Shown piece after piece: positions 945 to 27,544 of a DNA stretch of 32,000 nt (its first letter is position 1; every line of letters starts with the position of its first letter). The position numbers and the translations under genes were made by a program. Below the pieces are notes generated by a model. That model ran no database searches, was not told the origin of the DNA, and saw only the letters and a program-made list of their open reading frames with translations. The stretch is from assembly GCA_963698565.1 (NCBI GenBank), contig CAVORH010000049.1:1-32000 (forward strand), written 5' to 3'. This stretch comes from Ilumatobacteraceae bacterium. Its GTDB lineage: Bacteria > Actinomycetota > Acidimicrobiia > Acidimicrobiales > Ilumatobacteraceae.

Positions 945-2569
945 ATGCTGGCCCCGTGTCACAGGACTTGCCTTGCCATCGGGTGCTTCCTCGCTTCACC
1001 AAGCGGGCTCGAGAACGAGCGCGGAACGGTCAGGGCAGCGATCAACGAGTTCAACGAGGAGGAGGCCTTTGCAAGCAGAGCGGCGTTCATTCCGTTCGGC
1101 TACGAGTCGTCACCTGGAGGTTTCGGTCGTCCGCAGGATGAGATCAACCACACGCTCAGGCAATGCGACTATGCGATCGTTCTGCTCGCTGACCGATGGG
1201 TTCGCCGCCAGGAGGTGACAACGGCTACACGAGCGGGACGGAGGAAGAGTACGAGGAAATCGTGAAGGCGATCGAAGACACTTCTCTCCCCATGCGTGAC
1301 GTGTTAGTCGCGTTCAAGTCGGTTCCTCGCGGTCAGATGGCTGACCCTGGCAAGGACCTCAAGAAGGTCCTCAAGTTCCGCAAGGACCTGGAGAAGAGCC
1401 ACGCGCTCTTCTACAAGCAGTTCGATACGGAGGAGGAGCTGTGCCGTTGGGTGCAGCAGAAGTTACGCGGCGGGGCCCGTTCCGATCTGGGGTGGGGAGG
1501 GGCAATCGCCCGACGATCTCGTGGACGATGCTGCAGATGCGGTGGACGAAGGCCTTCAGTCCTCTGACGAGATGGTCAGCAGAGCCTGGGAACTTGCGTC
1601 CGAGGGTTCGGTTACACAGGCCGAGGTGCTGTTCTCTCGCGCAGTCCGAAACGGCGGCCCCGAAACACTGCTCGAGAGCGCCCGGTTCATGCGCAGACGA
1701 GGACGCCTCGAAGCTGCGTACCAACTCGACCGCGAGTACATCGAGGCAACTGCATCGAAGGATGGCCTGGACATGAGGGTCAATCGGTCCAGAGCGCTCG
1801 CCAACATGGGTGTGGTTCGACGCAAGCAGGGCAATCTCCGAGAATCTAGGGGCCACCTAGTCGAAGCAGTCGCGGTTGCGCGTACTGCTGGACCCGACGG
1901 TGACGTGCCACTCGCGTATGCGCTGGACAACCTTGCACACACCGCTGCCCAGCAGGGAGACCTTGCGACCGCTGAGCACAGCTTGGAGGAAGCGCACTCG
2001 ATACGGGCGAGAGACGACGATCAGGCTGGAATTGCACAGTCGCTTATCAACCTCTCGCTGTCTCAGACGAGCCCGAGGGGACAACGAACTCGCGTTGGAA
2101 CAACTGACGACAGCGATCGGGATTCTTCGCAACTTGAATGGCCAAGAGACTTTGCTAGCCAACGCGCTGGTCGCGGCAGGAGAGGCAGCACTCGATCTCG
2201 AACGACCCGACGCCGAATCAATGGTACGAGAAGGCCTCGACCTGAACGAACGAGTAGCCAACAGTGACGGGATCAGCATTGCTTCCACGGTGCTCGCTCG
2301 CGTCGCCCTGTCTGCGGGGGACATTGACGAGGCGGAGCGGCACGCCGAGCGGACGGCAGAGGAGAGCATCTCATCAACGAACCAAGAGGGCCTGGGCGTT
2401 CTCGCGCACCTGCGGGGTTCGATCGCCCTTGCGCGGGGTGAGTATTCGGCAGCGGTGGAACATCTGGAAGAAGCATTTCGAGCTGTTCGAGCAAACCGGA
2501 TCAGTTCGACGCGCCGATTCCGCGCGGGCGGACCTAGCTACAGCTCGTGCCCGGCTTTCGAATGGCTAG
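945..2569 (+). pseudogene. DUF4062 (TIR/deoxyribosyltransferase-like) - TPR repeat protein, disrupted by about 4 frame changes
   Basis: Sensible protein sequence runs through four ORF-track pieces in different frames. 945-1200 gives CFLASPSGLENERGTVRAAI...CDYAIVLLADRW. ~1199-1500 gives GSPPGGDNGYTSGTEEEYEEIVKAI...ELCRWVQQKL. 1500-2078 and 2078-2476 are TPR-like A/L-rich repeats. 2477-2569 gives ELFEQTGSVRRADSARADLATARARLSNG*. The first two pieces together match the DUF4062 pattern (..ryGs...g.SyTE.Ey..A). Each junction lies at a homopolymer: GGG 1198-1200, G-runs 1470-1503, GGGG 2077-2080, TTT 2476-2478. Confidence 0.6.
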
Positions 2570-3162
2570 GCCTGAATCCAAGTCGCCGACGGCCAAAAGA
2601 AACAGGTGAGCTTGCCGTCCTCGAAAGTTCCGCATCCTGTGTCGATAAAGGCTCGACGGCGATCGACCATTGGTACTCGCGATCCCTGAGGGACGTGACC
2701 GGAGACGTGATATCGGTCGCCGTCGGCGGCGGAGGTCTGGCGCGGGTAGTGCGACGCGAGGATTTCGTTGCCTAAACGGAACTCCGCCTCCAGCGATTGG
2801 AGGAAGCGTCTGTGATCGGGTGATACTGCTGCTACGAACGCCGCTTCCCATTCAGCACCGATCGAAGAGATATAGGACCGGATGGTTGCAGCGCCCCCCA
2901 TCTGCAGAAACGCGTCAAGTCCTCGGCCCTCGAGCGCCGCTCGAAACGCAGCATCATGATTTCCCTCTAGGAAGGTGCACTCCACCGCCGATTGCTCCAG
3001 GCCGACCAGCACATCGAGAACCTGGCAACTGAATCGACCGCGGTTCACGTAGTCCCCGAGGAAGATCAAGCGTTCGACTTCGTCCTCCACGCGACCGAGG
3101 AGGGCCTGAAGACGATCGACGTCTCCATGAATGTCGCCAATGAATCCGAGCCGAGCCGTCAC
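2566..3162 (-). CDS. calcineurin-like metallophosphoesterase (lambda-phosphatase / ApaH-PrpE-like)
   Basis: Motifs GDIHGD, GDYVNRG, GNHD, GGAATIRSY, SGHVP and IDTGCG appear in canonical order. I chose the GTG at 3162 because it forms a GTGA overlap with the upstream stop (3159-3161) and sits 6 codons before GDIHGD. The ORF-track start at 3258 would overlap the upstream gene by 100 nt. Confidence 0.85.
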   Translation of the reverse strand: MTARLGFIGDIHGDVDRLQALLGRVEDEVERLIFLGDYVNRGRFSCQVLDVLVGLEQSAVECTFLEGNHDAAFRAALEGRGLDAFLQMGGAATIRSYISSIGAEWEAAFVAAVSPDHRRFLQSLEAEFRLGNEILASHYPRQTSAADGDRYHVSGHVPQGSRVPMVDRRRAFIDTGCGTFEDGKLTCFFWPSATWIQA

Positions 3163-3443
3163 AGCAGCACCTTCGGCAGAGCTGAGTAGTCGATCTCTGA
3201 ATTCGGGTCTGCGAATGCCAAAGTCGCCATCGTGGCCATCGACCGGTCGCGGTCCCACTCCGCGATGATCAGTTGTTGGATCGTCTCATAGTCAGCACTG
3301 TCGGCGGCGCCGACGAGGACACGCAGCCGGTCCCTCAAGTCGTTGATTTCGCTGACGCCGGGCGTAGGGCCGTCCTCAGGGTCTCTCGACCTCAGCAGCT
3401 CCACTAGTGCCGGATCCTCGAAACGGCGCGCCAACTCACTCAC
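3159..3443 (-). CDS. hypothetical 94-aa acidic protein, no recognisable domain, no His/Cys
   Basis: The ORF is coupled at both ends by 4-nt GTGA overlaps (3440-3443 and 3159-3162) to the nucleotidyltransferase and the phosphoesterase. Coding is inferred from this operon geometry. Confidence 0.6.
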   Translation of the reverse strand: MSELARRFEDPALVELLRSRDPEDGPTPGVSEINDLRDRLRVLVGAADSADYETIQQLIIAEWDRDRSMATMATLAFADPNSEIDYSALPKVLL

Positions 3444-3946
3444 CGAGAAGCATGGCTGACCGAGCGCGAGAGCGGTGAGGTAGATCGCAGATCGAAGGAA
3501 GTATCTCGAGCCACGCGAGCGAGACCCGCTAGAGGAGGATCGACTTGCCGAACACCGACATCGATGATCACGGAGAGGATACGAATCCGCTCAAGACTGG
3601 TAGCCGGATCTGGCTGCCCCATGCGCTGCAGCGCCAGGGTGAGGAACTCCTCCGCCTCATGAAGCACTCGACCATCACGTGCGAGGTGCATACCGAAAAG
3701 TGTGCCTCGCGCATCGAGGAACTGCTTCGGCGTGTAGCAGCTCAGTGTCACATTGCCCCTCACTCGCGTGCCGACTGCAGACTCGGTGACCGCAAGGAGG
3801 TCGAGGTCCGAGGTGTCACAGAAGTCCCCTCGTGCGTAGCTTCCATAGACCATGAGGCCAACGCACTTGTCTGGGAGGAGTGAGACTCCCAAGTTGAGCA
3901 GGTCTCGCGCGCACGTCGAGCGCGTGCAAGCTCGTCCGGACCTCAT
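3440..3946 (-). CDS. Pol-beta superfamily (minimal) nucleotidyltransferase domain protein
   Basis: GLMVYGSYARGDFCDTSDLDLL matches the G-S-x9-13-D-x-D NTase signature. A ~100-aa helical tail follows. The 5' end is uncertain; see the finding on ATG 4091. Confidence 0.75.
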   Translation of the reverse strand: MRSGRACTRSTCARDLLNLGVSLLPDKCVGLMVYGSYARGDFCDTSDLDLLAVTESAVGTRVRGNVTLSCYTPKQFLDARGTLFGMHLARDGRVLHEAEEFLTLALQRMGQPDPATSLERIRILSVIIDVGVRQVDPPLAGLARVARDTSFDLRSTSPLSRSVSHASR

Positions 3947-4105
3947 TGAAGTCGATCCGACTTGTACCCATGCTTCTGGACGCTAGCGGTGGGGCCCGTC
4001 GGCCGGAGGCGGCGAGCCGCACGATTGTCCACCATAAGGAATGAGTCTCGGCAACGGAGTCTTCGGGATGAAACCCGTTGCGGATCGCCATTTCGCGCAC
4101 CTCGG

Positions 4106-4138
4106 CTTCTAACGACTCGTTAGAAGAATCGTTAGAAG
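4106..4138. promoter_or_regulatory. operator-like array: perfect 9-3-9 palindrome plus a third direct copy of the 9-mer
   Basis: CTTCTAACG(4106-4114)-ACT-CGTTAGAAG(4118-4126)-AAT-CGTTAGAAG(4130-4138). The array lies in the least GC-rich 60 nt I counted. It sits between the tRNA terminator and the first possible start codons (4100/4091) of the minus-strand operon. Confidence 0.45.
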
Positions 4139-4151
4139 ATTGCTTGCAGAC

Positions 4152-4192
4152 GCAAGAAAGCCCTGGCGGATCTTGCGATCTACCAGGGCTTT
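4152..4192 (-). terminator. intrinsic terminator downstream of tRNA-fMet
   Basis: On the minus strand: AAAGCCCTGG-ta-GATC-GCAA-GATC-cg-CCAGGGCTTT followed by CTTGCG. This is a 10-bp outer stem, an inner GATC stem with a GCAA tetraloop, and a U-rich tail (UUUCUU). It starts 6 nt after the tRNA 3' end. Confidence 0.6.
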
Positions 4193-4197
4193 CGTAG

Positions 4198-4271
<74 letters not shown>

Positions 4272-4453: not shown

Positions 4454-5509
4454 GTGCACAGTTCGACGAGGTCCTCGCTCCGGTCCTCGTCGGACGGCGT
4501 CATCCGGCTGCGAGCTGTCGACGGCGTCGACGAACTCCCATCGGGCGTCGCTGACGACCAGCATCCGGGCGCGTACCGCACCACGACCACCGGTGGGTCG
4601 CTCCGCTTCTCGTACGCGGTCGGGCCGGACTCGTTGAAGGCGATGGTGCACCCGCCCCGCAGCCCGGTCTGGGCGATGACCCGCGATGACACTGGCTCGA
4701 TCTCGGTGAGCGTCGCACCAACACGTCCCGTCCGCCGCGCCGTACTCGGCGCCCGGGCCTGCGACCTCGCCGCCCTCGAGCGTCTCGACCGCACCCAGCT
4801 GGCCGGGCCGCACCCCGACCGCCAACACGCCGCCGCACGTGCCCAGTTGTTCACGATCGGGGTCGACTGTTCCCAACCGGCCGCCACGTGCTTCTGCGAG
4901 TCGACCGGCACCGGCCCATCCGTCGACAGTGGCGCCGATCTGTCGATGACCGAGATGGGCGACGACGTGGTGCAGTACGTGTTGCGCGCCGGATCGGAGC
5001 AGGGCCGCGAGTTCGCCGAGTCGCTCGGGCTCGCGTCCGCGGGAGCCGACGTCGTCGCCGAGGCCGAGCGACTGCGTCGCAGCGTGCACACCACCGAGCG
5101 AGCGATGCCGACGGATGCGGCATCGATCGTGCTGGCCGATCTCGAACACCCACGCTGGGACGACGTGGCCGAACGCTGCCTCACCTGCGGCAACTGCACC
5201 GCCGTGTGCCCGACCTGCTTCTGCACCGACTTGGACGATCGAATGGAGCTCGACGGCCTCACCACCCATCGCGACCGGGTGTGGGACACCTGCTTCAGCC
5301 TGGAGTACTCACACCTCGGCGCCGGGCCCGCGCGCTCGTCGGCTCGCTCGCGGTACCGACAGTGGCTCACCCACAAGCTCGGCACCTGGCACGACCAGTT
5401 CGGCGAATCGGGGTGCGTCGGGTGCGGGCGCTGCATCACCTGGTGCCCCGTCGGCATCGACCTGACCGCCGAGGTCGACGCGCTCGCGACGTCGGGAGTC
5501 ACGCCATGA
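4454..5509 (+). CDS. hyhB: [NiFe]-hydrogenase group-3b-type beta subunit (4Fe-4S, AsrA/HydB-like)
   Basis: Two ferredoxin-type cluster motifs are present: [16 protein letters not shown] and [12 protein letters not shown]. The N-terminal half is AsrA-like ([29 protein letters not shown]). It is first in an ATGA-coupled beta-gamma-small-large order. 4454 is the first in-frame start, but family-like N-terminal sequence continues upstream in another frame from ATG 4414 (see finding). Confidence 0.85.
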
Positions 5510-6420
5510 CCGCCAGGACGACGCCGACCACCCGTTCTCGTGAACTCGTTGCGGAACTATTCCGCAACGAGTTCACGAGAATGGCTACGAGCACCGGCGA
5601 TCCGATGATCGAACCACGCGTCCACGTCGTGCGGTCGGTCACCCCCGAGACCCCGGGCGTGTTCACACTCGACGTCGTCCCGGTCGACGGCGCGCCCACT
5701 CCGTTCCTGCCGGCGCAGGTCAGCATGCTCGGCGCGTTCGGGATCGGCGAGGCGGCGATCTCGATCAGTTCCTCCGCCGCCGTCGATGATCACCACGAGT
5801 ACACGATCCGTCGGGCCGGAGCGATCACCACTGCACTCGGCGCGCTGCGGCCGGGTGACCAGTTGGCGATCCGCGGCCCGTTCGGCCGGCCGTGGGACGT
5901 CGACGCACTGCACGGCGATGTCGTGATCGCAGCCGGCGGCATCGGGCTCGCGCCCTTGCGCTCGGCCGTGTACGCCCTGCTCGACACGATGCAGGAGCGA
6001 CCGCATCGCCGCATCCTGTTGGTCGTCGGTGCCCGCAGCAGCGCAGATCTGCTCTACTCCGGCCAGTACGACGAGTGGCGAGCCCGCGGCATCGAGGTCG
6101 TCTCGACGATCGACACCGCGGAAGCCGGATGGTCGGGTCGGGTCGGGTTCGTACCGGACGTCGCCGCCGACCTCGATGTCGACTGGGCGATCACCGGAGC
6201 ACTGGTGTGCGGCCCCGACGTGATGATGCGACTGACCGCAGACCGCTTCATCGACCTCGGCGTCGCGCCCGGCTCGATCCAGCTGACGCTGGAACGGAAC
6301 ATGCAGTGCGCGACCGGCCGCTGCGGCCATTGCCAGCTCGGGCCGGTGCTGGTGTGCCGCGACGGCCCGGTGATGACCTATCCCGAGATCGCCGACGCGC
6401 TGCGGGTGCGGGAGCGCTGA
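5506..6420 (+). CDS. hyhG: hydrogenase gamma subunit (FAD/NAD(P)-binding oxidoreductase with C-terminal 2Fe-2S)
   Basis: ATG 5506 overlaps the beta stop (ATGA) and has GGGAG 7 nt upstream. The protein has a ferredoxin-reductase-type fold pattern ([26 protein letters not shown]). A C-terminal [20 protein letters not shown] cluster motif is present. The 4888 start in the ORF track was rejected. Confidence 0.85.
5535..5581. repeat. perfect 47-bp palindrome (22-bp arms, 3-nt centre) inside the first 26 codons of hyhG
   Basis: TTCTCGTGAACTCGTTGCGGAA-CTA-TTCCGCAACGAGTTCACGAGAA, verified base by base. It is about 45% GC in a ~67% GC context. Confidence 0.95.
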
Positions 6421-6430
6421 GGAGGCCACG

Positions 6431-7204
6431 ATGGAGGAACGACGACCGACCCTGGCGGTGTGGAAGTTCGCTTCGTGCGACGGATGCCAGCTCAGCCTGC
6501 TCGACTGCGAGGACGAACTGCTCGCCGTGGCCGACCGTGTCGCCATCTCCTACTTCCCCGAGGCCACCTCCACGATGGTCGAGGGTCCGTACGACGTCTC
6601 GCTCGTCGAGGGCTCGATCACGACCGCGCACGACGCCGAGCGCATCCTCGAGATCCGGCGCCAGTCGGGACTGCTCGTCACCATCGGTGCGTGCGCCACC
6701 GCCGGCGGCATCCAGGCCCTGCGGAACGGTGCCGACATCGCCGAGTTCACCTCGATCGTGTACGCCCACCCCGAGTACATCTCCACGCTCGCAACCTCCA
6801 CGCCGATCGCCGACCACGTCGACGTCGACCTCGAACTCCGCGGCTGCCCGATCGACCGTCGCCAGCTCGTCGCCACGATCGCCGCTCTACTGAACCGCCA
6901 CGTACTGCGGCTGCCGACCACCAGCGTGTGCACCGAATGCAAGGCGGCGTCGACGAGCTGCGTGATGGTGGCCCACGGCACCGCCTGCCTCGGACCGATC
7001 ACCCAGGCCGGCTGCGGGGCGCTGTGCCCGTCGTTCCACCGCGGCTGCTACGGGTGCTTCGGGCCGATGGAGGACCCGAACATCCCCGCGCTCGAGCACC
7101 GACTCGACCAACTCGGGATCGAACCGGAGGCGATCGATCGCCTGATGCGCACCTTCGACGTCGAGGCCTTCGCCCGCATCGCAGCCGAAGGAGCCCGGCC
7201 ATGA
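6431..7204 (+). CDS. hyhS: [NiFe]-hydrogenase small (delta) subunit, group 3 type
   Basis: The N-terminal [15 protein letters not shown] and [10 protein letters not shown] proximal-cluster motifs are present. C-terminal Cys clusters are [28 protein letters not shown] and CYGCFGP. Confidence 0.9.
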
Positions 7205-8517
7205 CCCACAAGTCACTCGACCTGCACGTGCCGACGCTCACCCGCGTCGAGGGCGAAGGGGCGATGCACGTCGTCGTCCGCGACGGCGTGGTCGAGGACG
7301 TCCAGCTCGAGATCTACGAGCCACCCCGCATGTTCGAGGCCTTCCTGCGCGGGCGGGCGCACCACGAACCCGTCGACATCACGGCGCGGATCTGCGGGAT
7401 CTGCCCGGTCGCCTACCAGATGAGCGCGGCCCACGCGATCGAACGGCTCGCCGGTGTGAGCGTCGACGGGCCGATCCGCGACCTGCGACGCCTGCTCTAC
7501 TGCGGCGAGTGGATCGAGAGCCACGTCCTGCACATGGCGTTCCTGCACGCACCGGACTTCCTCGGTGTCGACTCCGGGATCACGATCGCCCGGCAGGAAC
7601 CCGAGCTGATGACCGAGGTGCTGCACCTCAAGAAGACCGGCAACCGGATCATGGAGGTCGTCGGCGGACGTCCGATCCATCCGGTCAACGTGCGCCTCGG
7701 CGGGTTCTACCGGGCGCCGAGCCGGCGAGAGCTCCACGCCCTCGACGCCGACCTCGAACGGGCCCACGCCGCCGCGGTCGCTCTCGTCCGCTGGGTCGCC
7801 GGATTCGAATTCCCCTCGATCCCCGACCGCCTGGCCGAACACACCGAGTTCGTGTCGCTGCGTCACCCGCACGAGTACCCGCTCAACGAGGGCCGCATCG
7901 TGTCGAACCTCGGCCTCGACCTCGACGTCACCGAGTACGGCGAACGGCTCCGTGAGATCCACGTCGAACACTCGACCGCGCTGCACGCCACTCTCGACGG
8001 TGATCGTCGCTACCAGGTCGGCCCGCTCGCACGTTGGATGAACAACTTCGACCTGCTCACCGACTCGGTGCGCGACCTCGCCGGCGAGGTCGGCATCGGC
8101 GAGGTGGAGACCAACCCGTTCCGCAGCATCATCGTGCGGGGCCTGGAGACGGTGTGGGCGCTCGAGGAAGCCCAGCGCATCATCGACGCCTACACCCCGC
8201 CGCCCGAACCCGCCGTCGAGGTACCGCCCGTCGCCGGCACCGGGCAGGCAGCGACCGAGGCCCCGCGGGGCCTGCTCTACCACCGCTACGAACTCGACGA
8301 TGCCGGCATCATCGCCGACGCCGTGATCGTGCCACCCACCTCGCAGAACCAGATCGCGATCGAGGCCGACCTGCGCGACTTCGTGCAGTCACACCTCGAC
8401 CTCGACGACCACACGCTCGGTCACCGCTGCGAGCAGGTGATCCGCAACTACGACCCGTGCATCTCCTGCGCGACCCACTTCCTGCGCTTCAGCAGCGACC
8501 GGATCGGCGACCGATGA
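7201..8517 (+). CDS. hyhL: [NiFe]-hydrogenase large (alpha) subunit, group 3b type
   Basis: ATG 7201 overlaps the small-subunit stop (ATGA). The N-terminal Ni-binding motif RICGICP and C-terminal DPCISCATH are present, as is LTRVEGEG near the N-terminus. The 438-aa length fits group 3. The 6460 start in the track was rejected. Confidence 0.92.
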
Positions 8518-8972
8518 CCACGATCGTGATCGGCGTCGGCAACCGCGACCGCGGTGACGATGCCGTCGGCCCGATCGTGTGCGACCGGCTGCGCGCGCGG
8601 TACCCCGCCGACGCCCCCCTGCGGGTGATCGTGTGTGAGGGCTCGATCCTCGATCTCGCGCTCCACTGGCAGTCCGACGATCACGTGGTGATCGTCGACG
8701 CGATGCAGCCCGGCACGGCGCCGGGACGTGTCGTGACCTTCGACGCGACGGCGGAGCCGCTGCCGACGCCCGGGGCGGTGTCGACCCACGAGATCGACGT
8801 GTCGGTCGCGATCGAACTCGCCCGGGCGATCGGACGGATGCCGGCGCAGCTGCTCCTGATCGGCGTCGAAGCCGCACAGACCGAGTGGGGAACCCCACCC
8901 AGCCCGCCGGTCGACGCCGCGATCGAGGCCGTCGTCGACGAGTTCGTTCGCGACCACCTCGCCATGCGATGA
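8514..8972 (+). CDS. hydrogenase maturation endopeptidase (HycI/HoxW-like)
   Basis: ATG 8514 overlaps the large-subunit stop (ATGA). [19 protein letters not shown] is the typical GxGNxxxxDDxxG start of this protease family. Length is 152 aa. Confidence 0.85.
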   Translation: MTTIVIGVGNRDRGDDAVGPIVCDRLRARYPADAPLRVIVCEGSILDLALHWQSDDHVVIVDAMQPGTAPGRVVTFDATAEPLPTPGAVSTHEIDVSVAIELARAIGRMPAQLLLIGVEAAQTEWGTPPSPPVDAAIEAVVDEFVRDHLAMR

Positions 8973-9009
8973 GTTTCCGGGCCACCCCTCGGCCACGAAT
9001 CTCATCGCA
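8965..9009. terminator. hairpin between convergent genes (possible bidirectional terminator)
   Basis: TGCGATGAG (8965-8973) pairs with CTCATCGCA (9001-9009). An inner TTC/GAA pairing is also possible. It overlaps the endopeptidase stop codon. There is no clear U-tract. Confidence 0.35.
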
Positions 9010-21489: not shown

Positions 21490-24414
21490 TCAGGGCTGGT
21501 TGATCAGGATCTCCAACGCGTCGGCGATCAGGCTGCGGGCTTCCCCGACCTTCTCCTGGTAGAGCCCGAGGTCACCGTCCTGCAACGCCGCCTCGGCATC
21601 GGCGAAGGCCTGGTCGGCGTCGTTGAGCAGCGATGTGGGATCACCAGTGGCGATCTGCACACCGGGATCGGTGACGGCCGGATCGACATCGCTGCCGTCG
21701 TCGGGCTCGGTCGGCTGGGCGATCTCCTCACCGAGGTCACCCCGGAAGCCCGGGAACAACCGGGCCAGAGCCTCGCCGACGGTCGGCTCGAGGACGGAGC
21801 GATCGTTGTACGAGACGATGACCGCGCGGTACTCGGTGACCGAGCCGACGTCGCCGGAGTTCTGCGGAACCGACACGTAGTACGGCCGCACGTAGATCAG
21901 GCCGTCGCCGACCGGGATCAACTGGAGGTCACCGAAGCGAACCTCGGAGCCACCTCCACCGACGTTGTCGAGCGAGATCCTCCGGGAGATCGCCTCGGTC
22001 GACTCGGCGTTGCCGGCCACCCGCAGCGGACCGTCGGGCAGGTTGCCGTTGGCGTCCTCGACGATGTAGGTGGTGAGCTTGCCGTAGCTGTCCGGATCGC
22101 TCGAGGCCGTCATGTACGCCTGCAACTGCGTACGTTCGTCGTTCGTCGAGAACGGCACGAACGGCCGCAGCATCACGAAGTTCTCCTCCGAGGGTTCGCC
22201 CGGAGCGCTGGTGTCGAACATCGTGTAGTACGGGATGAACCGATCGGAGTTCGACTCGGTTGCGAAGGTGTTCTCGGCCGCAGTGTTGGTGCCGTCGGCG
22301 GTGACCGGTCCGCCGGCGTTGACCACCAGCTGCGATGGCTCGGTGCCCGGAGCCTGCGCCACCGACCAGGCGTTGCCGTCGCGCTGGAAGAACAGCGCCG
22401 GGTCGATGCGGTACTTCGAGTAGACGTCGGTCTGGATGCGGAAGAGATCCTCGGGGTAGCGCAGGTGCTGACGCAGCTCGTCGGGCATCTCGCTCAGCGG
22501 CGTGAACAGGTCGGGGAAGGCCCCGCGCCACGCCTGCAGGATCGGATCCTGCTCGTCGACGACGTAGAACGTGGCCTCGCCGGTGTACGCATCGACGACC
22601 GCCTTCACGCTGTTGCGCACGTAGTTGTCGTTGTCGCTCAGGCCGGACTGCGGCGAGCGCTGCACGTCACCGATGCGTTGGCCGTACGGGTACCGAGTGG
22701 TCGTCGTGTAGGCGTCGGTGACCCACACGGCTCGTCCGTCGATCGCCACGGGGTACGGGTCGGCGTCGTAGGACAGGAACGGCGCCAGCTTGCTGAGCCG
22801 GTCGTTGACGCCCCGCACCCACAGCATCTGCGAGTCGGGGTTGATGGCGCCCGACCCGAGCACGTTGTAGTCGAGGAAGGCGAGCGCAAAGGCGGCGCGA
22901 CGGGCGAAGGAGTTCATCTCGACGCCGTTGGTGCCCTCGTACGCATGCGGCTCGGCGCACTCGCGCTCGGTGGACTCGCTGTTGGCGATGGCGTAGCCGG
23001 TGAGGATCGGGCTGAAGTACAGCTCGGGTCGGGCCAGCTCGACGGTGCGGTAGTCGGGACGCTGGTTCTCGAGCACGCGTCCGGTGGGTGCCATCACCAG
23101 ACCGCACCCGCGGGTGTTGATCAGGTGCAGGCCCTGCCAGCTCTTGTTGGTCACGCCGCTGAGCTGGAGTTCGCGGGCGGCGATCAACACCTCTTCGGGC
23201 TCGGCGCCGTCATCGAGCACGTAGCGGTCGACATCGAGGTCGTCGATCGTCAGGCCGGCGACCTCGCCACGGTCGACCAGGAACCTGGTCTCCATCTGCG
23301 ACGGGTTCAACAGGCGCACGTTCTCGAGCGGCGCCAGGTTGTCCTCGACATCCTGCGCCGAGAGGGTCTGGAAGTCGACCGTGCGGACATCGACCTCGGT
23401 CAGCCCGAGCGACTCACGCGTCGCCGTGACGTTGCGCTCGATGTACGGCTCCTCGCGGACCTCCTGGTTCGGGTTGACGACGAGCGCCTGCACCACGGCC
23501 GGATAGATCAGCCCACCGACGATCGCGATCACGAGCCAGAGCGCCGAGGCGATGAACGGCAGGCGGAACGACCCGGTTCGCACCACCGACAGGTACAGCC
23601 CGGCGGTGAGCAGCGCAATCAGGATCAGCAACATGATCGCCGGCAGCTGCGCATTGACCACCGAGTACGTGGCGCCCTGGACGATGCCCCGCTCGGTGTT
23701 GGTGATCGCATACCGATCGAGCCAGTAATCGCCCGCCTTGACGACCGCCAGCACCGCGAGCAGCACGGCGAGGTGGGCCTTGGTCGCCTGGCGTACCACC
23801 GGCACCGGCGACACGAACACCACTCCGCCGTTGAGGATGTGGGCAGCGGCTGTCAGCAGCAGCACGACGATCAGCGACGCGAAGAGCCAGTTGAGCACGA
23901 ACGACAGGAACGGGAGCTGGAAGACGTAGAACCCGACATCGGCGCCGAACTGGGCGTCGGCGATACCGAACTCTCGGGCGTTGCGGAACAGCAACCAGTC
24001 CTGCCAGAGCGCCACCGCCGGCAGCGCGAGCAGCAGCGCGAAGATGAGCGCGATGCCGTAACGAACGAGCCGGAGACGATGCCCGAAGACATCGTGGAAG
24101 CGCTCGACATATGGATGCACGTTCGCGGGGAACGTGTCCGGAGCGACCCGATCGGCGATCCACAGGTTGATGCCCGCAATCAGGGCGAAGAGCCCGAAGA
24201 ACACGCCGAACAACGTCAGCTTGGCGGAGATGACACCCCAGAAGACGTCCTCGCGTCCCAGCGATTCGTGCCACAGGTAGTCGACGTAGAACCGGGCGAT
24301 CGCCCGGCCGAAGATGAGCACGAACAGGAACAGCCCGCCCAGGACGATGAGTACACCGCGACCCGTGAAGCGGCGACGGGGACGATCGATCGAGATCTCA
24401 GAGCTGCGCGCCAT
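21490..24414 (-). CDS. UPF0182 family membrane protein
   Basis: The protein is 974 aa. The N-terminal polytopic region has the signature FYVDYLWHESLG. A large extracytoplasmic C-terminal domain follows. Size and layout match the actinobacterial UPF0182 family, of which Rv3193c is my recalled example. Confidence 0.88.
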   Translation of the reverse strand: MARSSEISIDRPRRRFTGRGVLIVLGGLFLFVLIFGRAIARFYVDYLWHESLGREDVFWGVISAKLTLFGVFFGLFALIAGINLWIADRVAPDTFPANVHPYVERFHDVFGHRLRLVRYGIALIFALLLALPAVALWQDWLLFRNAREFGIADAQFGADVGFYVFQLPFLSFVLNWLFASLIVVLLLTAAAHILNGGVVFVSPVPVVRQATKAHLAVLLAVLAVVKAGDYWLDRYAITNTERGIVQGATYSVVNAQLPAIMLLILIALLTAGLYLSVVRTGSFRLPFIASALWLVIAIVGGLIYPAVVQALVVNPNQEVREEPYIERNVTATRESLGLTEVDVRTVDFQTLSAQDVEDNLAPLENVRLLNPSQMETRFLVDRGEVAGLTIDDLDVDRYVLDDGAEPEEVLIAARELQLSGVTNKSWQGLHLINTRGCGLVMAPTGRVLENQRPDYRTVELARPELYFSPILTGYAIANSESTERECAEPHAYEGTNGVEMNSFARRAAFALAFLDYNVLGSGAINPDSQMLWVRGVNDRLSKLAPFLSYDADPYPVAIDGRAVWVTDAYTTTTRYPYGQRIGDVQRSPQSGLSDNDNYVRNSVKAVVDAYTGEATFYVVDEQDPILQAWRGAFPDLFTPLSEMPDELRQHLRYPEDLFRIQTDVYSKYRIDPALFFQRDGNAWSVAQAPGTEPSQLVVNAGGPVTADGTNTAAENTFATESNSDRFIPYYTMFDTSAPGEPSEENFVMLRPFVPFSTNDERTQLQAYMTASSDPDSYGKLTTYIVEDANGNLPDGPLRVAGNAESTEAISRRISLDNVGGGGSEVRFGDLQLIPVGDGLIYVRPYYVSVPQNSGDVGSVTEYRAVIVSYNDRSVLEPTVGEALARLFPGFRGDLGEEIAQPTEPDDGSDVDPAVTDPGVQIATGDPTSLLNDADQAFADAEAALQDGDLGLYQEKVGEARSLIADALEILINQP

Positions 24415-24426
24415 TGGCGCCGAACA

Positions 24427-26283
24427 CTAACGGCCGGCAGGGAGCAAGAGGCATCGGCACCCGATGTGCGCAGGTGCGAACGTGTGCCCGGTCGGGAACG
24501 CATCGCCGGCGGCGATCGTGCCGGCGAGAGAGTTGTCGTCGCAGTCGGCGCACCCCTGGCGGGAGTCGTCACAGGCCCACACCACCGGGGTCCCCGGCTC
24601 GATGGCAGCGAGGACACCGCGACCGTGCGCCATCCGCACGATGTCGTCGAGCTGCTCGTCGATGTGCTGTGTCTTCCACTCCCGGTAGACCGCACGGATC
24701 CGCTTGCTGATGTCGGCGCGGTCACCGTCGTCGATGCACCGGGCCAGCCGCTCACGCAACGGCTCGACGAGCCATTCGGCGAGCACGTCGTCGGCGGCGG
24801 AGATCGCAGCGGCGGCGTCGGCGGCAGCCAGCGGCTTCGAGCGTCCGCCGAGCACTGCGCCGGCATCGGCGGCTGCGCGGAGCTCGTCGGAGATCGCGCC
24901 GGCGTACCGTCCCACGTGTTCGGCGGCCGCGGGAAGCAGCGCGTCGAGGTCACCGACGGGACCGGTGCCACGCAACGCCTCGAGCACCTCGTTCTGCTCG
25001 TCGGCCAGCGCTCGCTTGAGCTTTCGGGCCGATGCCACGATGATCGGCGTCAGGTCGGCGTCGCGAGACTCGAACGGCGACAACACCGCATCGTCGACCT
25101 CATCGGCCCGGACCTCGTTGTCGGCGGCGTCGTCGGCGGCCGGCTCGTCGGCGGCGTCGACGGTCGCCGGCATCTCGGGCTCGGTGACCACCGCCTCCGC
25201 GCGCAGCCGGGCGAACAGGTCGACCACGACGTCGTCACGCTCCCGCGACTCGGTGGCGTCCTCGGCGACATCGGCCGCGACGTGGACCTCGTTCGCGTCC
25301 GGCTCGACCGCAACGTCCTCGACCGCAACGTCCTCGACCGCGACGTCCTCGACCGCAACGTCCTCGGCGGTCGTCTCGTCCTCGTCCTCGACCGCGACGT
25401 CGACCTGAGCGTCGTCATCGACCTGAGCGTCGTCATCGACCTGAGCGTCGTCATCGACCTGGGCGTCGTCGACGACCTCGACGGCGTCATCGACCTGGGG
25501 TGTCGGCTCGATCGGCTCGGTCTCGACCGCCTCGGTCTCGACCGCCTCGGCCTCGATGGGCGTCGCCTCGACCGGACGCGGCGAGTTGGGCACCATCACC
25601 GGCACCGGTCCGGTCGTCGGTGCCAGATTCACGTACTCATCGGGCTCCCCCAGCGGCTGCAGCTCCGACACCACGTCGACCGCCACCAGACGAGCCCGCT
25701 CGAACGACTGCATCAGGCGGTCGCGTCCGTGCAACAACTGTTCGATCTGCTCGCGAGCCAGTTCACGCCGCCGTGCGAGTTCGCTGAGCACGCGCTCTCG
25801 GTACGCCCGTGCCTCGTTGACCATCTCGCGACCCTGCTGCTTGGCCATTGCGAGTTCGGCCTCGGCATCGGCGGCCGCGTCGGTGCGCCGCCGCGAGGCC
25901 TCGATCTCGGCCTCCTCGCGCATCCGAGCCGCTTCGTCACTGGCCTCGTTCAGCAGTTGCGCGGCGGCCTGCTCTGCCTTCTGACGGATCTCGACCGCGC
26001 TCTCGCGTGCCGTGGTGAGCACGCGAGCGGTCTCCTCACCGAGCAGCCGGGTGAGCGCGGCGTCGTCGAGTTGCGCCGTCGACAGGTCGGGGCTCGACTG
26101 TGCGGTGCGCAGCTCCCGCTCCAGGAACCGCTCGCGCTCCTGGAGCCGCCCGAGCTCGGCTGCGATCATCCGCAGGAAGTCGCGCACTTCGGCCTGGTCG
26201 AACCCGCGCCGGCTGGTGCTGAAACCGGCGTCGGCAACCGACGCCGGAGACGACGGATCGGGTCGGGTGAAGGACATGGCCAT
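24427..26283 (-). CDS. DivIVA-domain protein with acidic tandem-repeat linker and MuF-like Cys/His C-terminus
   Basis: The N-terminal FSTSRRGFDQAEVRDFLRMIAAEL is the DivIVA motif (F..xxrGYdxxeVdxFL), followed by coiled coil. The central part holds D/E/V repeats. The C-terminal GCADCDDNSLAG...PTGHTFAPAHIGCRCLLLP resembles the end of phage Mu-F/SPP1-gp7-type proteins (C..C ... HpnCRC). Confidence 0.8.
   Translation of the reverse strand: MAMSFTRPDPSSPASVADAGFSTSRRGFDQAEVRDFLRMIAAELGRLQERERFLERELRTAQSSPDLSTAQLDDAALTRLLGEETARVLTTARESAVEIRQKAEQAAAQLLNEASDEAARMREEAEIEASRRRTDAAADAEAELAMAKQQGREMVNEARAYRERVLSELARRRELAREQIEQLLHGRDRLMQSFERARLVAVDVVSELQPLGEPDEYVNLAPTTGPVPVMVPNSPRPVEATPIEAEAVETEAVETEPIEPTPQVDDAVEVVDDAQVDDDAQVDDDAQVDDDAQVDVAVEDEDETTAEDVAVEDVAVEDVAVEDVAVEPDANEVHVAADVAEDATESRERDDVVVDLFARLRAEAVVTEPEMPATVDAADEPAADDAADNEVRADEVDDAVLSPFESRDADLTPIIVASARKLKRALADEQNEVLEALRGTGPVGDLDALLPAAAEHVGRYAGAISDELRAAADAGAVLGGRSKPLAAADAAAAISAADDVLAEWLVEPLRERLARCIDDGDRADISKRIRAVYREWKTQHIDEQLDDIVRMAHGRGVLAAIEPGTPVVWACDDSRQGCADCDDNSLAGTIAAGDAFPTGHTFAPAHIGCRCLLLPAGR
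25306..25365. repeat. 4 x 15-bp in-frame tandem repeat (encodes VEDVA x4 on the minus strand)
   Basis: GACCGCAACGTCCTC occurs at 25306, 25321, 25336 (one substitution) and 25351. Confidence 0.9.
25402..25473. repeat. 4 x 18-bp in-frame tandem repeat (encodes DDAQVD x4)
   Basis: GACCTGAGCGTCGTCATC occurs at 25402, 25420 and 25438. A diverged copy lies at 25456. Confidence 0.9.
25516..25545. repeat. 2 x 15-bp tandem repeat (encodes EAVET x2), followed by a degenerate third unit
   Basis: CTCGGTCTCGACCGC occurs at 25516 and 25531. The related CTCGGCCTCGATGGG lies at 25546. Confidence 0.85.
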
Positions 26284-26347
26284 GGCGCAACGCTACGCAG
26301 TCCGACTTCTCAGATGGTGGCAATCGACGCGCACACCGCGCGCAACG

Positions 26348-27544
26348 TCAGCTGATGGGCACCAGCGGGTCGCCACCGAGATCCTCGAGCGCCGCAAGCG
26401 CCTCGTCGAGGGTCGCAACGGGGATGATCCTCACCTCGCCACGGCCGGCATCCTCCAGACGCTGACGCTCGACGGGGTCATCGAGTTCCGACTGCGAGGC
26501 CGGCACCAGGAACACCCGCACCCCGTTCTGGTGCACCGCCGACACCTTCTGGGCGAGGCCGCCGATCGCGCCGACCTCGCCGTTGAGGTTGATCGTGCCG
26601 GTCACGGCAACGTTCTGGTCGCCGGTGAGGGACCCGGGCGAGAGTTCGTCGATCATCGCGAGCGTGAACGCCAGCCCGGCGGAGGGTCCGCCGATGTCAC
26701 CGGTCTCGATGTCGACCTGGAACGGCAGCTGGATCGCACGTGTGTCGAACGGAACGAAGCCGACGATCGTGCGCTCCGGATCGTCGGGGGAGGCGGACAG
26801 TTCGACCGTCACGGTCTCCTGGCCCTCGCCCGGCCGCTCGATCACGAGATCGATCGTGTCGCCGGGCTGGCGGTCGGCGAGCACCGCACTGAGATCGTCG
26901 ACCGACTCCAGCGTCACCCCGTCGGCTTCGAGGATCCGATCGGCTGGGTCGATCTGCTCGTCGGACGGAAACCATTCCTCGCACTCGCCGCCGTCGTCGG
27001 ACGGGACCTTGCACAAGACGTCCTGCACGATCACGTCGCCAGGGGTGATCTCCACGTCGAAGCCCAACGTGGTGAGCGCCACGTACTGCGCCTCCTGCTC
27101 TGCCGTTCGCATCATCTGCAGGTTGAATTCGCGTCGCTGGCTCGGCGTTCGTGCCCCGAACTTGTCCTCCTCGGTCAGGAAGTCGACCGCTGGGTCGTCG
27201 CGACCGGCGAACCACGACAACACCGACTGGTTCGGTGCCGTGACGGTCACGAAGACGAAGTCGTTGGCGGTGTCGAACCGCTCGACGCCGTCGGGGAGCT
27301 CGCCGAACACGATCCGGTCGTTCACGGGATCAGCCGACGCCGGGGTCAGGGCGTACGGCGTCGAGTTCATCTCTCCCGTGCGCTGGTTCTCCTTGCTCGA
27401 CACGAGGCCGGACGGAAGCAGCGACGCCACGCCGATCGCGGCGAGCGTCAGCAGGCCCAACGAGGCCAGAACCCAGGCCCACCACCGGTTGCGGGGGGTG
27501 GTCAGTACGATGTCGGTTGTCGTGTCGGTCACGGATCTCACCAC
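26348..27544 (-). CDS. PDZ domain-containing Lon-like (S16) serine protease, membrane-anchored
   Basis: There is an N-terminal transmembrane helix and a central PDZ-like region. The C-terminal Lon protease domain carries the catalytic-Ser motif DIGGPSAGLAF and GGLAQKV. The gene sits upstream of the DivIVA-domain and UPF0182 genes; in M. tuberculosis, as I recall, Rv3194c and Rv3193c (UPF0182) are directly adjacent. The start is GTG 27544. Confidence 0.88.
   Translation of the reverse strand: MVRSVTDTTTDIVLTTPRNRWWAWVLASLGLLTLAAIGVASLLPSGLVSSKENQRTGEMNSTPYALTPASADPVNDRIVFGELPDGVERFDTANDFVFVTVTAPNQSVLSWFAGRDDPAVDFLTEEDKFGARTPSQRREFNLQMMRTAEQEAQYVALTTLGFDVEITPGDVIVQDVLCKVPSDDGGECEEWFPSDEQIDPADRILEADGVTLESVDDLSAVLADRQPGDTIDLVIERPGEGQETVTVELSASPDDPERTIVGFVPFDTRAIQLPFQVDIETGDIGGPSAGLAFTLAMIDELSPGSLTGDQNVAVTGTINLNGEVGAIGGLAQKVSAVHQNGVRVFLVPASQSELDDPVERQRLEDAGRGEVRIIPVATLDEALAALEDLGGDPLVPIS

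Follow-up and report, generated by a model that had tools for sequence, protein, structure and literature searches.

A frameshifted copy of a conserved locus for a HalB-like nucleotidyltransferase, a metallophosphoesterase and a DUF4062-TPR effector, a candidate anti-phage system, in an Ilumatobacteraceae bacterium

The window analyzed here is a stretch of 32,000 nucleotides (nt) of an Ilumatobacteraceae bacterium (positions 1-32,000 of contig CAVORH010000049.1, assembly GCA_963698565.1), and its minus-strand open reading frames (ORFs) and their frames were inspected on its letters. Positions 945-3946 hold, with high confidence for the anatomy as a whole, the decayed version of a locus that is conserved elsewhere, comprises three genes and encodes a nucleotidyltransferase (NTase) resembling HalB of the Hailong system, a metallophosphoesterase (MPE) whose start overlaps the stop of the NTase, and an effector in which a DUF4062 domain is fused to TPR. 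The conserved locus is a candidate anti-phage system that is apparently undescribed. The original prediction for this DNA, made from the letters alone, had instead proposed three intact minus-strand genes tied into one translational unit by GTGA overlaps: a minimal NTase, an acidic protein of 94 amino acids (aa) and a lambda/ApaH-type phosphoesterase. The features of the locus in the window are as follows.

3506..3946, minus strand: 5' part of the NTase gene with the catalytic core, from homologue alignment and a family hidden Markov model (HMM)
3504..3505, minus strand: extra 'GA', the frameshift site (GCT CGA GA TAC, where homologues read A-R-Y)
3159..3503, minus strand: 3' part of the NTase gene in the -1 frame, including the 94-aa ORF 3443-3159, from alignment and HMM
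3186..3188, minus strand: codon for Y253 of the repaired NTase, the invariant tyrosine of its tail, Y in 43/43 core family members
3159..3162, minus strand: GTGA, NTase stop and MPE start, a 4-nt overlap found in 44/47 loci
2566..3162, minus strand: MPE gene, 198 aa, intact, from motifs, Pfam and fold match
945..2569, plus strand: DUF4062-TPR effector pseudogene, convergent with the MPE gene, from tblastn, frame inspection and six-frame HMM

The three predicted ORFs are present at 3946-3440 (168 aa), 3443-3159 (94 aa) and 3162-2566 (198 aa, GTG start), and the GTGA overlaps are seen at 3440-3443 and 3159-3162, but alignment and HMM searches identify the 94-aa ORF as the C-terminal part of a frameshifted NTase and not as a gene of its own. 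The frame of the 94-aa ORF is open upstream of its GTG, reading ...RYFLRSAIYLTALALGQPCFS|VSELA, and the supposed GTG start is the valine codon of a near-invariant family motif, PCFSVRELA. This upstream frame and the 94-aa region together encode RYFLRS and PCFSVSELA, as well as a helical domain and the tail at the C-terminus (...EIDYSALPKVLL). When the frame ending in ...GLARVAR is joined to the downstream frame, the 262-aa product, used as a query, matches more than 90 single proteins of approximately 260 aa over 90-100% of its length with 36-51% identity. The repaired NTase has 261 aa, and its alignment with more than 100 such single proteins runs from end to end. The junction in homologues is always A-R-Y, with R147 in 43 of 43 family members and Y148 in 42 of 43; because the window has two extra bases at 3504-3505 compared to this A-R-Y, the NTase is cut off there. 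A family HMM built without the window sequence gave 133 bits for the 168-aa ORF (positions 19-150), 77 bits for the 94-aa ORF (positions 172-262) and 267 bits for their fusion (positions 20-262), and a six-frame HMM search split the window NTase into 18-150 and 147-262. Wherever the NTase gene is complete and undisrupted in related loci it is a single ORF of 252-278 aa; a separate gene at the position of the 94-aa ORF was found in none of approximately 50 related loci, and the 94-aa ORF alone matched no family.

An independent 94-aa gene is ruled out by the open upstream frame, the homologue alignments and the HMM scores. Three separate co-translated proteins (minimal NTase, 94-aa acidic adaptor or substrate, and phosphoesterase) would be in keeping with the existence of the ORFs, of both GTGA overlaps and of a possible GTG start, but this alternative is scarcely credible given the homology of the 94-aa ORF to positions 172-262 of a family encoded by single genes, the continuation of the family motif RYLLRS...PCFS in the frame upstream of its GTG, the lack of a separate gene in the related loci, and the failure of the ORF by itself to match any family. 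What had been proposed as an acidic partner or substrate is the helical domain and tail at the C-terminal end of the NTase itself. Since the 94-aa ORF corresponds to positions 172-262 of the family HMM, it is the frameshift inside one gene that gives rise to the overlap at 3440-3443; of the proposed translational coupling, what stands is the junction at 3159-3162. The intactness of the operon was not borne out either, the NTase gene being interrupted in the window. The start of the NTase is ambiguous: ATG 3946 is used here, while an upstream ATG combined with a second frameshift at approximately 3905-3912 scores 272 bits versus 267 bits and is weakly favored as the N-terminus, with no tblastn support for that second frameshift. 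For annotation, the lesson is that one 2-nt indel is enough to produce a convincing 'coupled small ORF'.

The neighboring plus-strand gene at 945-2569, which the original prediction rightly called a pseudogene, is broken by frameshifts in the window, but its dismissal was mistaken, as the same gene is adjacent across related loci and is the true third component. Its coding frame changes from 3 to 2 at approximately 1199, from 2 to 3 within 1465-1566 and from 3 to 1 within 2054-2152, and probably a fourth time, from 1 to 2, near 2460-2475; the pieces recovered by six-frame HMM cover positions 6-80, 81-163, 187-354 and 329-473. The pseudogene keeps the DUF4062 motif SGTEEEY at 1232-1252. In the window copy the NTase gene thus has one or two frameshifts, the effector gene has a minimum of three and probably four, and the MPE gene alone is intact, and the simplest reading is that this copy has been pseudogenized; the earlier caveat that the operon might be degraded like the neighboring pseudogene describes what was found. 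That the copy is functional, its frame changes being sequencing errors or programmed ribosomal frameshifts, might be argued from the lack of in-frame stops in the aligned pieces and from the fact that all of the lesions are small indels. However, at least four, and probably five or six, frame changes fall within approximately 2.4 kb of NTase and effector sequence, compared to none in approximately 6 kb of neighboring housekeeping genes (UPF0182, which is 974 aa and covers its full profile, and four ORFs of the hydrogenase cluster described below); on account of the intact long neighbors, general sequencing error was rejected. There is no slippery heptamer at the CGA-GA-TAC junction, and other decayed copies (L015, L037, L047-L050) break elsewhere, at HMM positions 51, 139, 165 and 216; on these two grounds a programmed frameshift was rejected. 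A functional window copy is therefore considered highly improbable.

Independent decay is seen in eight loci of other genomes (L015, L034, L035, L037, L047, L048, L049 and L050). Georgenia has a frameshifted MPE and a frameshifted effector, in Micromonospora and Acrocarpospora the effector alone is damaged (two loci), and only a remnant is left in Leifsonia poae. A broken NTase or MPE beside an intact effector was seen in none of the four informative loci, a pattern that is weakly consistent with an effector that is harmful without its partners.

In the related loci, almost all of which belong to Actinomycetota with one in a Chloroflexota metagenome-assembled genome (MAG), the NTase-MPE pair is flanked by a protein of 470-600 aa that begins with a DUF4062 domain and carries TPR in its C-terminal part. 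This arrangement was seen in seven homologue contexts and in 43 genome loci, contig ends and one Leifsonia remnant being the exceptions. The gene is usually convergent with the MPE gene and abuts it; it is adjacent in all loci with enough flank except one degraded remnant, and in Promicromonospora it has been relocated directly upstream and is still adjacent. Intact homologues match Pfam PF13271 (DUF4062) with 26-35 bits versus a cut-off of 24.7 bits, and conserve the acidic stretch E-E-E-[YLF], in which E96 and E97 are present in 35 of 35, as well as R/Q/W positions. In Mycolicibacterium sp. CBMA 226 (L002 6494-8437), DUF4062 is replaced by an alpha/beta hydrolase (Abhydrolase_6/DUF7379) and the homologous TPR part is kept. 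DUF4062 is a TIR-like NADase and an experimentally shown defense effector (bioRxiv 10.64898/2026.05.01.722283, 10.64898/2026.06.25.731849). The third gene resembles Swarozyc and Evangelion ('NIR') in having a DUF4062 domain above the Pfam threshold, which in their tested systems is an NAD+-depleting abortive-infection effector; it differs in that Swarozyc and Evangelion each consist of a single gene and have auxiliary domains of other kinds, whereas here a DUF4062-TPR fusion is tied to an NTase and an MPE, and the two preprints on Swarozyc and Evangelion mention no TPR, nucleotidyltransferase or phosphoesterase (bioRxiv 10.64898/2026.05.01.722283, 10.64898/2026.06.25.731849). A single-gene architecture with its own auxiliary domain does not describe these loci, in which the DUF4062 gene is always linked to NTase-MPE and the auxiliary part is TPR.

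The catalytic core of the NTase is encoded at 3844-3800 (G35-S36 and D47-x-D49, followed by LFGMHLARD). Its best NCBIfam match is HalB, with E 2e-21 and 76.5 bits for the repaired NTase and 84-85 bits for intact homologues; the cut-off of the HalB equivalog model NF051895 is 190 bits, so that the NTase is not a member of the equivalog. In a profile search of PDB sequences the top three matches were HalB entries (E 3.5e-15), and hhalign against 17 HalB proteins gave a probability of 99.4% and an E-value of 1.6e-21, the 175 aligned columns reaching across the frameshift junction. An AlphaFold2 model of the NTase homologue P0003 had a predicted local distance difference test score (pLDDT) of 93.3; the 13 best Foldseek matches of this model were HalB chains with target TM-scores of 0.67-0.73, and the next family, ANT(4'), reached approximately 0.4. 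ANT models scored at noise level against the NTase. The sequence comparisons and the model identify the NTase as a predicted Pol-beta-type enzyme of approximately 260 aa that is a distant homologue of HalB but not HalB itself, a size and kinship (hhalign, Foldseek) that do not suit the label 'minimal'. In common with Hailong HalB (structures 9dbh, 9dbi and 9dbj) it has the motifs LFxxHL, R-[IV]-A-x-x-x-R-T and G-x-P-x-F-S; unlike HalB, to which it is approximately 22% identical, it is approximately 30 aa longer and has the tail motif D-Y-[AS]-x-L-P-K-V-L-L. When 1.84 billion representative proteins were searched with the profile of the family, approximately 55 clusters of the core were found together with a sister tier of lower scores; HalB-like NTases number 121 clusters at E <= 1e-30, rising to 464 clusters at E <= 1e-10.

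The tyrosine of this tail motif is present in all 43 core family members, 9 residues from the C-terminus in the repaired window NTase and 9-13 residues from it across the core family and the sister clade; it is kept in 14 of 14 sister-clade proteins read, the terminal residues of which differ. It lies in a flexible C-terminal tail, which has lower pLDDT in the modeled NTase homologue. HalB is constitutive and inhibitory and synthesizes poly-dA primed on a tyrosine (PMC13434031), and a tyrosine is found among the last residues in 17 of 17 aligned HalB proteins. By analogy, the tail tyrosine (Y253) is a candidate site of priming or self-nucleotidylation, and the idea of a 'writer' and an 'eraser' put forward in the original prediction survives in altered form, with this tyrosine in place of the 94-aa protein as the candidate substrate.

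The metal-site motifs of the MPE are intact as described previously, with GDIHGD at 3138-3121, GDYVNRG at 3057-3037 and GNHD at 2964-2953, and further conserved features are H117, H138, H156 and DTGCG. Pfam Metallophos matches the window MPE with 46.5 bits, and its structural model has a pLDDT of 95.5. Its closest solved relatives by sequence and by Foldseek are the phosphatase domain of Clostridium thermocellum Pnkp (4j6o), which is the best structural match, RLPH2 (5vjv), lambda phosphatase (1g5b), 2qjc and the ApaH-type Ap4A hydrolases. The lambda/ApaH-type label is therefore right on both sequence and fold matches: GDxHG, GDxx[DN]RG, GNH[DE], the later histidines and the MPE fold are all found. 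As an equivalog of ApaH, PrpE or Pnkp, however, the protein scores below every NCBIfam cut-off (ApaH 42 versus 176 bits). Like the clade of lambda phosphatase, Pnkp, ApaH, PrpE and RLPH2, it has every motif of the dinuclear-metal site as well as the signature DTGC...G-x-L-T...P near its C-terminus; it differs from that clade in being compact (198 aa) with a conserved helical insert of its own (residues ~68-122, MGGAxTxxSY). The 4-nt [A/G/T]TGA overlap of NTase stop and MPE start occurs in 44 of 47 related loci, and both the Rhodococcus plasmids and the sister clade have it too; at 3159-3162 the window thus has a true junction between two genes, and a conserved one. Conservation of catalytic residues in all three families suggests that the NTase, the MPE and DUF4062 are likely to be active enzymes.

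Pairwise distances of the three proteins correlate closely, with r = 0.975 for NTase-TPR, 0.927 for NTase-MPE and 0.938 for MPE-TPR (Mantel p <= 0.001, n=35). Three sister loci (L054 5001-7625, L055 4956-7451 and L056 3693-6188) have an overlapping same-strand operon in which the NTase gene is followed by an MPE gene and then by a gene for a restriction endonuclease (REase) protein. The MPE of the sister clade is 33-41% identical to that of the window, and the third protein, of 375-380 aa, has a C-terminal REase DpnII-MboI nuclease domain and a 230-aa N-terminal domain with no PADLOC match. One sister locus lies inside a conjugative element and another adjoins GmrSD; a metagenome scan for the sister clade found two loci only. 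The NTase and the MPE thus form a conserved core, and the enzymatic domain of the effector is exchangeable among the DUF4062 NADase, the alpha/beta hydrolase and the REase-fold nuclease of the sister clade. A conserved core with exchangeable effectors is an architecture typical of signaling defense systems.

The loci have integrase, resolvase or transposase neighbors, and their flanks differ from one locus to another. The locus is carried by Rhodococcus megaplasmids, one copy standing beside a NACHT gene: on the linear plasmid of Rhodococcus pseudokoreensis (L052), a gene for a 1219-aa NACHT-domain protein lies immediately upstream of NTase-MPE, which is separated from the record end by approximately 600 nt, so that only the C-terminal TPR part of the effector is included. 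There was no match in 50,697 phage records that would indicate carriage by phages.

The explanation of the locus as a phage-defense system with a HalB-like NTase, a coupled MPE and swappable effectors is rated as somewhat better than even, and a defense-type system with an NTase-MPE regulatory core as modestly probable. In the mechanism proposed, the NTase would constitutively make a nucleotide or oligonucleotide with its own tail tyrosine as the primer or the point of attachment. This product would be processed or turned over by the coupled MPE, whether by cleaving the tyrosine-phosphodiester link, by trimming or healing ends, or by enforcing rapid decay of the signal. The signal, or the state of the tail, would restrain the TPR-linked effector until infection disturbs the signal, upon which the released effector would deplete NAD+ (or, in the sister clade, cut DNA) and abort the infection. 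In Hailong, phage exonucleases that destroy the product of HalB release the HalA channel (PMC13276650). The proposed system would resemble Hailong in pairing an NTase with an effector whose unchecked activity would halt growth, and differs from it in having soluble effectors (DUF4062 NADase-TPR, alpha/beta hydrolase-TPR, or REase) instead of the HalA ion channel, and an obligatory translationally coupled metallophosphoesterase beside the NTase, which Hailong is without. The constitutive activity of HalB and the pattern of decay are the reasons for favoring the inhibitory 'guard' direction, which can be held only tentatively. Doubtful, and less likely than the guard direction in general, is a specific circuit on a protein tail, in which the NTase would modify its own tyrosine, the MPE would remove or trim the adduct and the TPR of the effector would read the tail or the adduct; the level of adduct would then depend on ongoing synthesis, and a phage disturbing the cycle would free the NADase, nuclease or hydrolase domain.

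Several points weigh against the proposed phage-defense system. The window copy is non-functional. The NTase reaches 76-85 bits versus the 190-bit cut-off for HalB, and among the neighbors in approximately 50 loci no HalA-type gene was identified (no transmembrane prediction was made). The C-terminal 50 residues of the NTase are not alignable with HalB, so that the correspondence between their tyrosines is an analogy, and conservation of the terminal PKVLL could be due in part to the Shine-Dalgarno and start signals of the MPE gene (AAGGTG...CTGTGA) and not to protein function. The nearest relatives of the MPE are mostly phosphomonoesterases or Ap4A hydrolases. DUF4062 proteins act as single-gene systems elsewhere, the effector gene is convergent in most loci and so is not in the NTase-MPE transcript, and the mirror-tree correlation is equally expected from simple physical linkage. 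As regards novelty, a September 2026 preprint on DUF4062 'NIR' mentions 'calcineurin-like phosphoesterase' and 'TPR', and may overlap with the locus described here (10.64898/2026.09.04.749371).

The alternative that survives best is the opposite logic, similar to that of CBASS or Thoeris: infection would turn the NTase on, its product would activate the effector, and the MPE would reset or buffer the signal. Most NTase-based defense systems signal by activation, a dedicated hydrolase would suit a role in resetting the signal or setting a threshold, and calcineurin-type phosphodiesterases have been described as cleavers of nucleotide signals in conflict systems (PMC7159879). On the other hand, HalB, to which the NTase is most closely related, acts constitutively and as an inhibitor (PMC13434031), there is no evident infection-sensing domain on the NTase whereas the effector has a TPR sensor, and the effector is never found intact with a broken NTase or MPE, which weakly favors restraint. 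Signaling by activation is therefore rated as rather unlikely.

Less probable again is that NTase-MPE is a self-contained two-gene module, serving synthesis and hydrolysis of a signal or acting in the manner of a toxin-antitoxin (TA) pair, beside an independent single-gene DUF4062 defense protein like Swarozyc or Evangelion. The protection afforded by single DUF4062 genes and the convergent, not co-transcribed effector of most loci could be explained in this way, but not so readily the adjacency of the effector in essentially all loci of Actinomycetota and in the Chloroflexota MAG, which has survived rearrangement of gene order, the NTase-effector distance correlation of 0.975, the swap of the N-terminal domain with retention of TPR, or the inclusion of the sister-clade effector within the same overlapping operon; such a module is distinctly unlikely. 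It is very unlikely that the locus has no part in immunity and is an end-healing or tailing module (a Pnkp-like phosphatase with a terminal transferase) or serves nucleotidylation of small molecules or antibiotics, as might be suggested by the C. thermocellum Pnkp phosphatase domain as the best structural match of the MPE and by aminoglycoside ANT(4') as the second-best fold family of the NTase, considering the strict linkage to NADase, REase or hydrolase effectors carrying TPR, the patchy, plasmid- or island-borne and often pseudogenized occurrence, and the noise-level scores of ANT models.

Comparison with known systems is in agreement with the original prediction, in which the combination was not recognized as any named system: there was no match to a named system in PADLOC-DB 2.0 (2023) or NCBIfam 20.0 (2026), and NCBIfam 20.0 names none of the three proteins beyond the sub-threshold HalB match. 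Matches to CBASS or other PADLOC-DB 2.0 systems were weak only, namely PDC-S09 (NTase core), PDC-S10 (MPE), PDC-S60 (DUF4062) and Aga_Helical-REase (sister-clade effector), and an MNT-HEPN TA system, CBASS or any other PADLOC system was rejected for want of supporting matches. The exclusion of MNT-HEPN made from the sequence was correct, the MntA model giving 20-23 bits versus its 60-bit cut-off (NF047752) and the partner being an MPE. The NTase has in common with type VII MntA-HepT the Pol-beta-type GS...DxD core and the idea of an NTase that nucleotidylates tyrosine; MntA, in contrast, is approximately 100-150 aa and AMPylates a separate HEPN toxin, whereas the 260-aa HalB-like NTase has no conserved HEPN partner. 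If the tail tyrosine primes synthesis, the logic would be the same as that of protein-primed DNA synthesis in defense by AbiK, DRT9 and DRT1, in which an enzyme-attached non-genomic nucleic acid regulates a toxic activity, although those enzymes have the reverse transcriptase fold and not that of a Pol-beta NTase. The RefSeq annotation of the Rhodococcus copy is generic, and within the literature collection searched there was no paper joining DUF4062 and nucleotidyltransferase in a defense context (two papers contain both terms but do not concern defense) and none joining metallophosphoesterase, nucleotidyltransferase and anti-phage.

Two further features lie upstream of the NTase gene in the window.

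4107..4137, strand not assigned: three copies of TTCTAACGA, including the palindrome CTTCTAACGAgTCGTTAGAAG, approximately 160 nt upstream of the NTase ATG
4197..4271, minus strand: tRNA-Met(CAT), at the boundary between the island and the [NiFe]-hydrogenase gene cluster

Two of the three TTCTAACGA copies form the perfect palindrome. The operator-like repeat array that had been predicted is thus present upstream of the NTase, but it was not found upstream of any related locus, and the palindrome was rejected as a conserved operator. A GC-rich hairpin (4157-4193) lies directly 3' of tRNA-Met and, with the repeats, between the tRNA and NTase genes. The repeats could be a local operator or the remnant of an integration site, a possibility entertained because the repeats are not conserved in other loci. 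The predicted tRNA-linked island is likewise correct for the window, where tRNA-Met(CAT) adjoins the locus, and does not extend to the family, in which a tRNA lies within 6 kb in only approximately 11 of 41 related loci; tRNA linkage was rejected as a family trait.

Directly upstream of the effector pseudogene, an ORF at 33-860 on the plus strand (275 aa) has the sequence RNAETH, a HEPN-like Rx4H motif recognized by eye. It is the only HEPN-like motif near the locus; as a fourth component this ORF was rejected, having no Pfam or PADLOC match and no homologue in any related locus. Beyond tRNA-Met, an intact [NiFe]-hydrogenase-type cluster at 4454-9000 on the plus strand encodes a Fer4_22 iron-sulfur protein, an Oxidored_q6 small subunit and a NiFeSe large subunit, with a further ORF downstream at 8034-8972, and this cluster marks the boundary of the island. 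An ORF of 1296 aa at 22465-26355 on the plus strand has no Pfam match and overlaps minus-strand genes for UPF0182 (21490-24414) and a DivIVA-domain protein (24427-26283). Very long ORFs without Pfam matches, such as occur in the window, are typical of the spurious antisense ORFs of a high-GC genome.

The defense repertoire of Actinomycetota is poorly characterized, and intact homologues of the locus, such as that of Rhodococcus erythropolis pLRE138 (WP_158510672, WP_051636640 and WP_030002991), offer a directly testable trio in this phylum. If the function proposed here is correct, Hailong would not be a one-off, and HalB-like NTases would make up a wider family and control several unrelated effectors, among them the newly recognized DUF4062 NADases. 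The obligatory MPE would then point to an enzyme that turns over or releases a nucleotide signal linked to protein, which in Hailong is presumably the work of cellular enzymes not yet specified. Should the circuit of modification, removal and reading of the NTase tail also prove true, the 'DNA-gated guard' of Hailong would be extended from one ion channel to modular soluble effectors and an enzyme for turnover of the signal.

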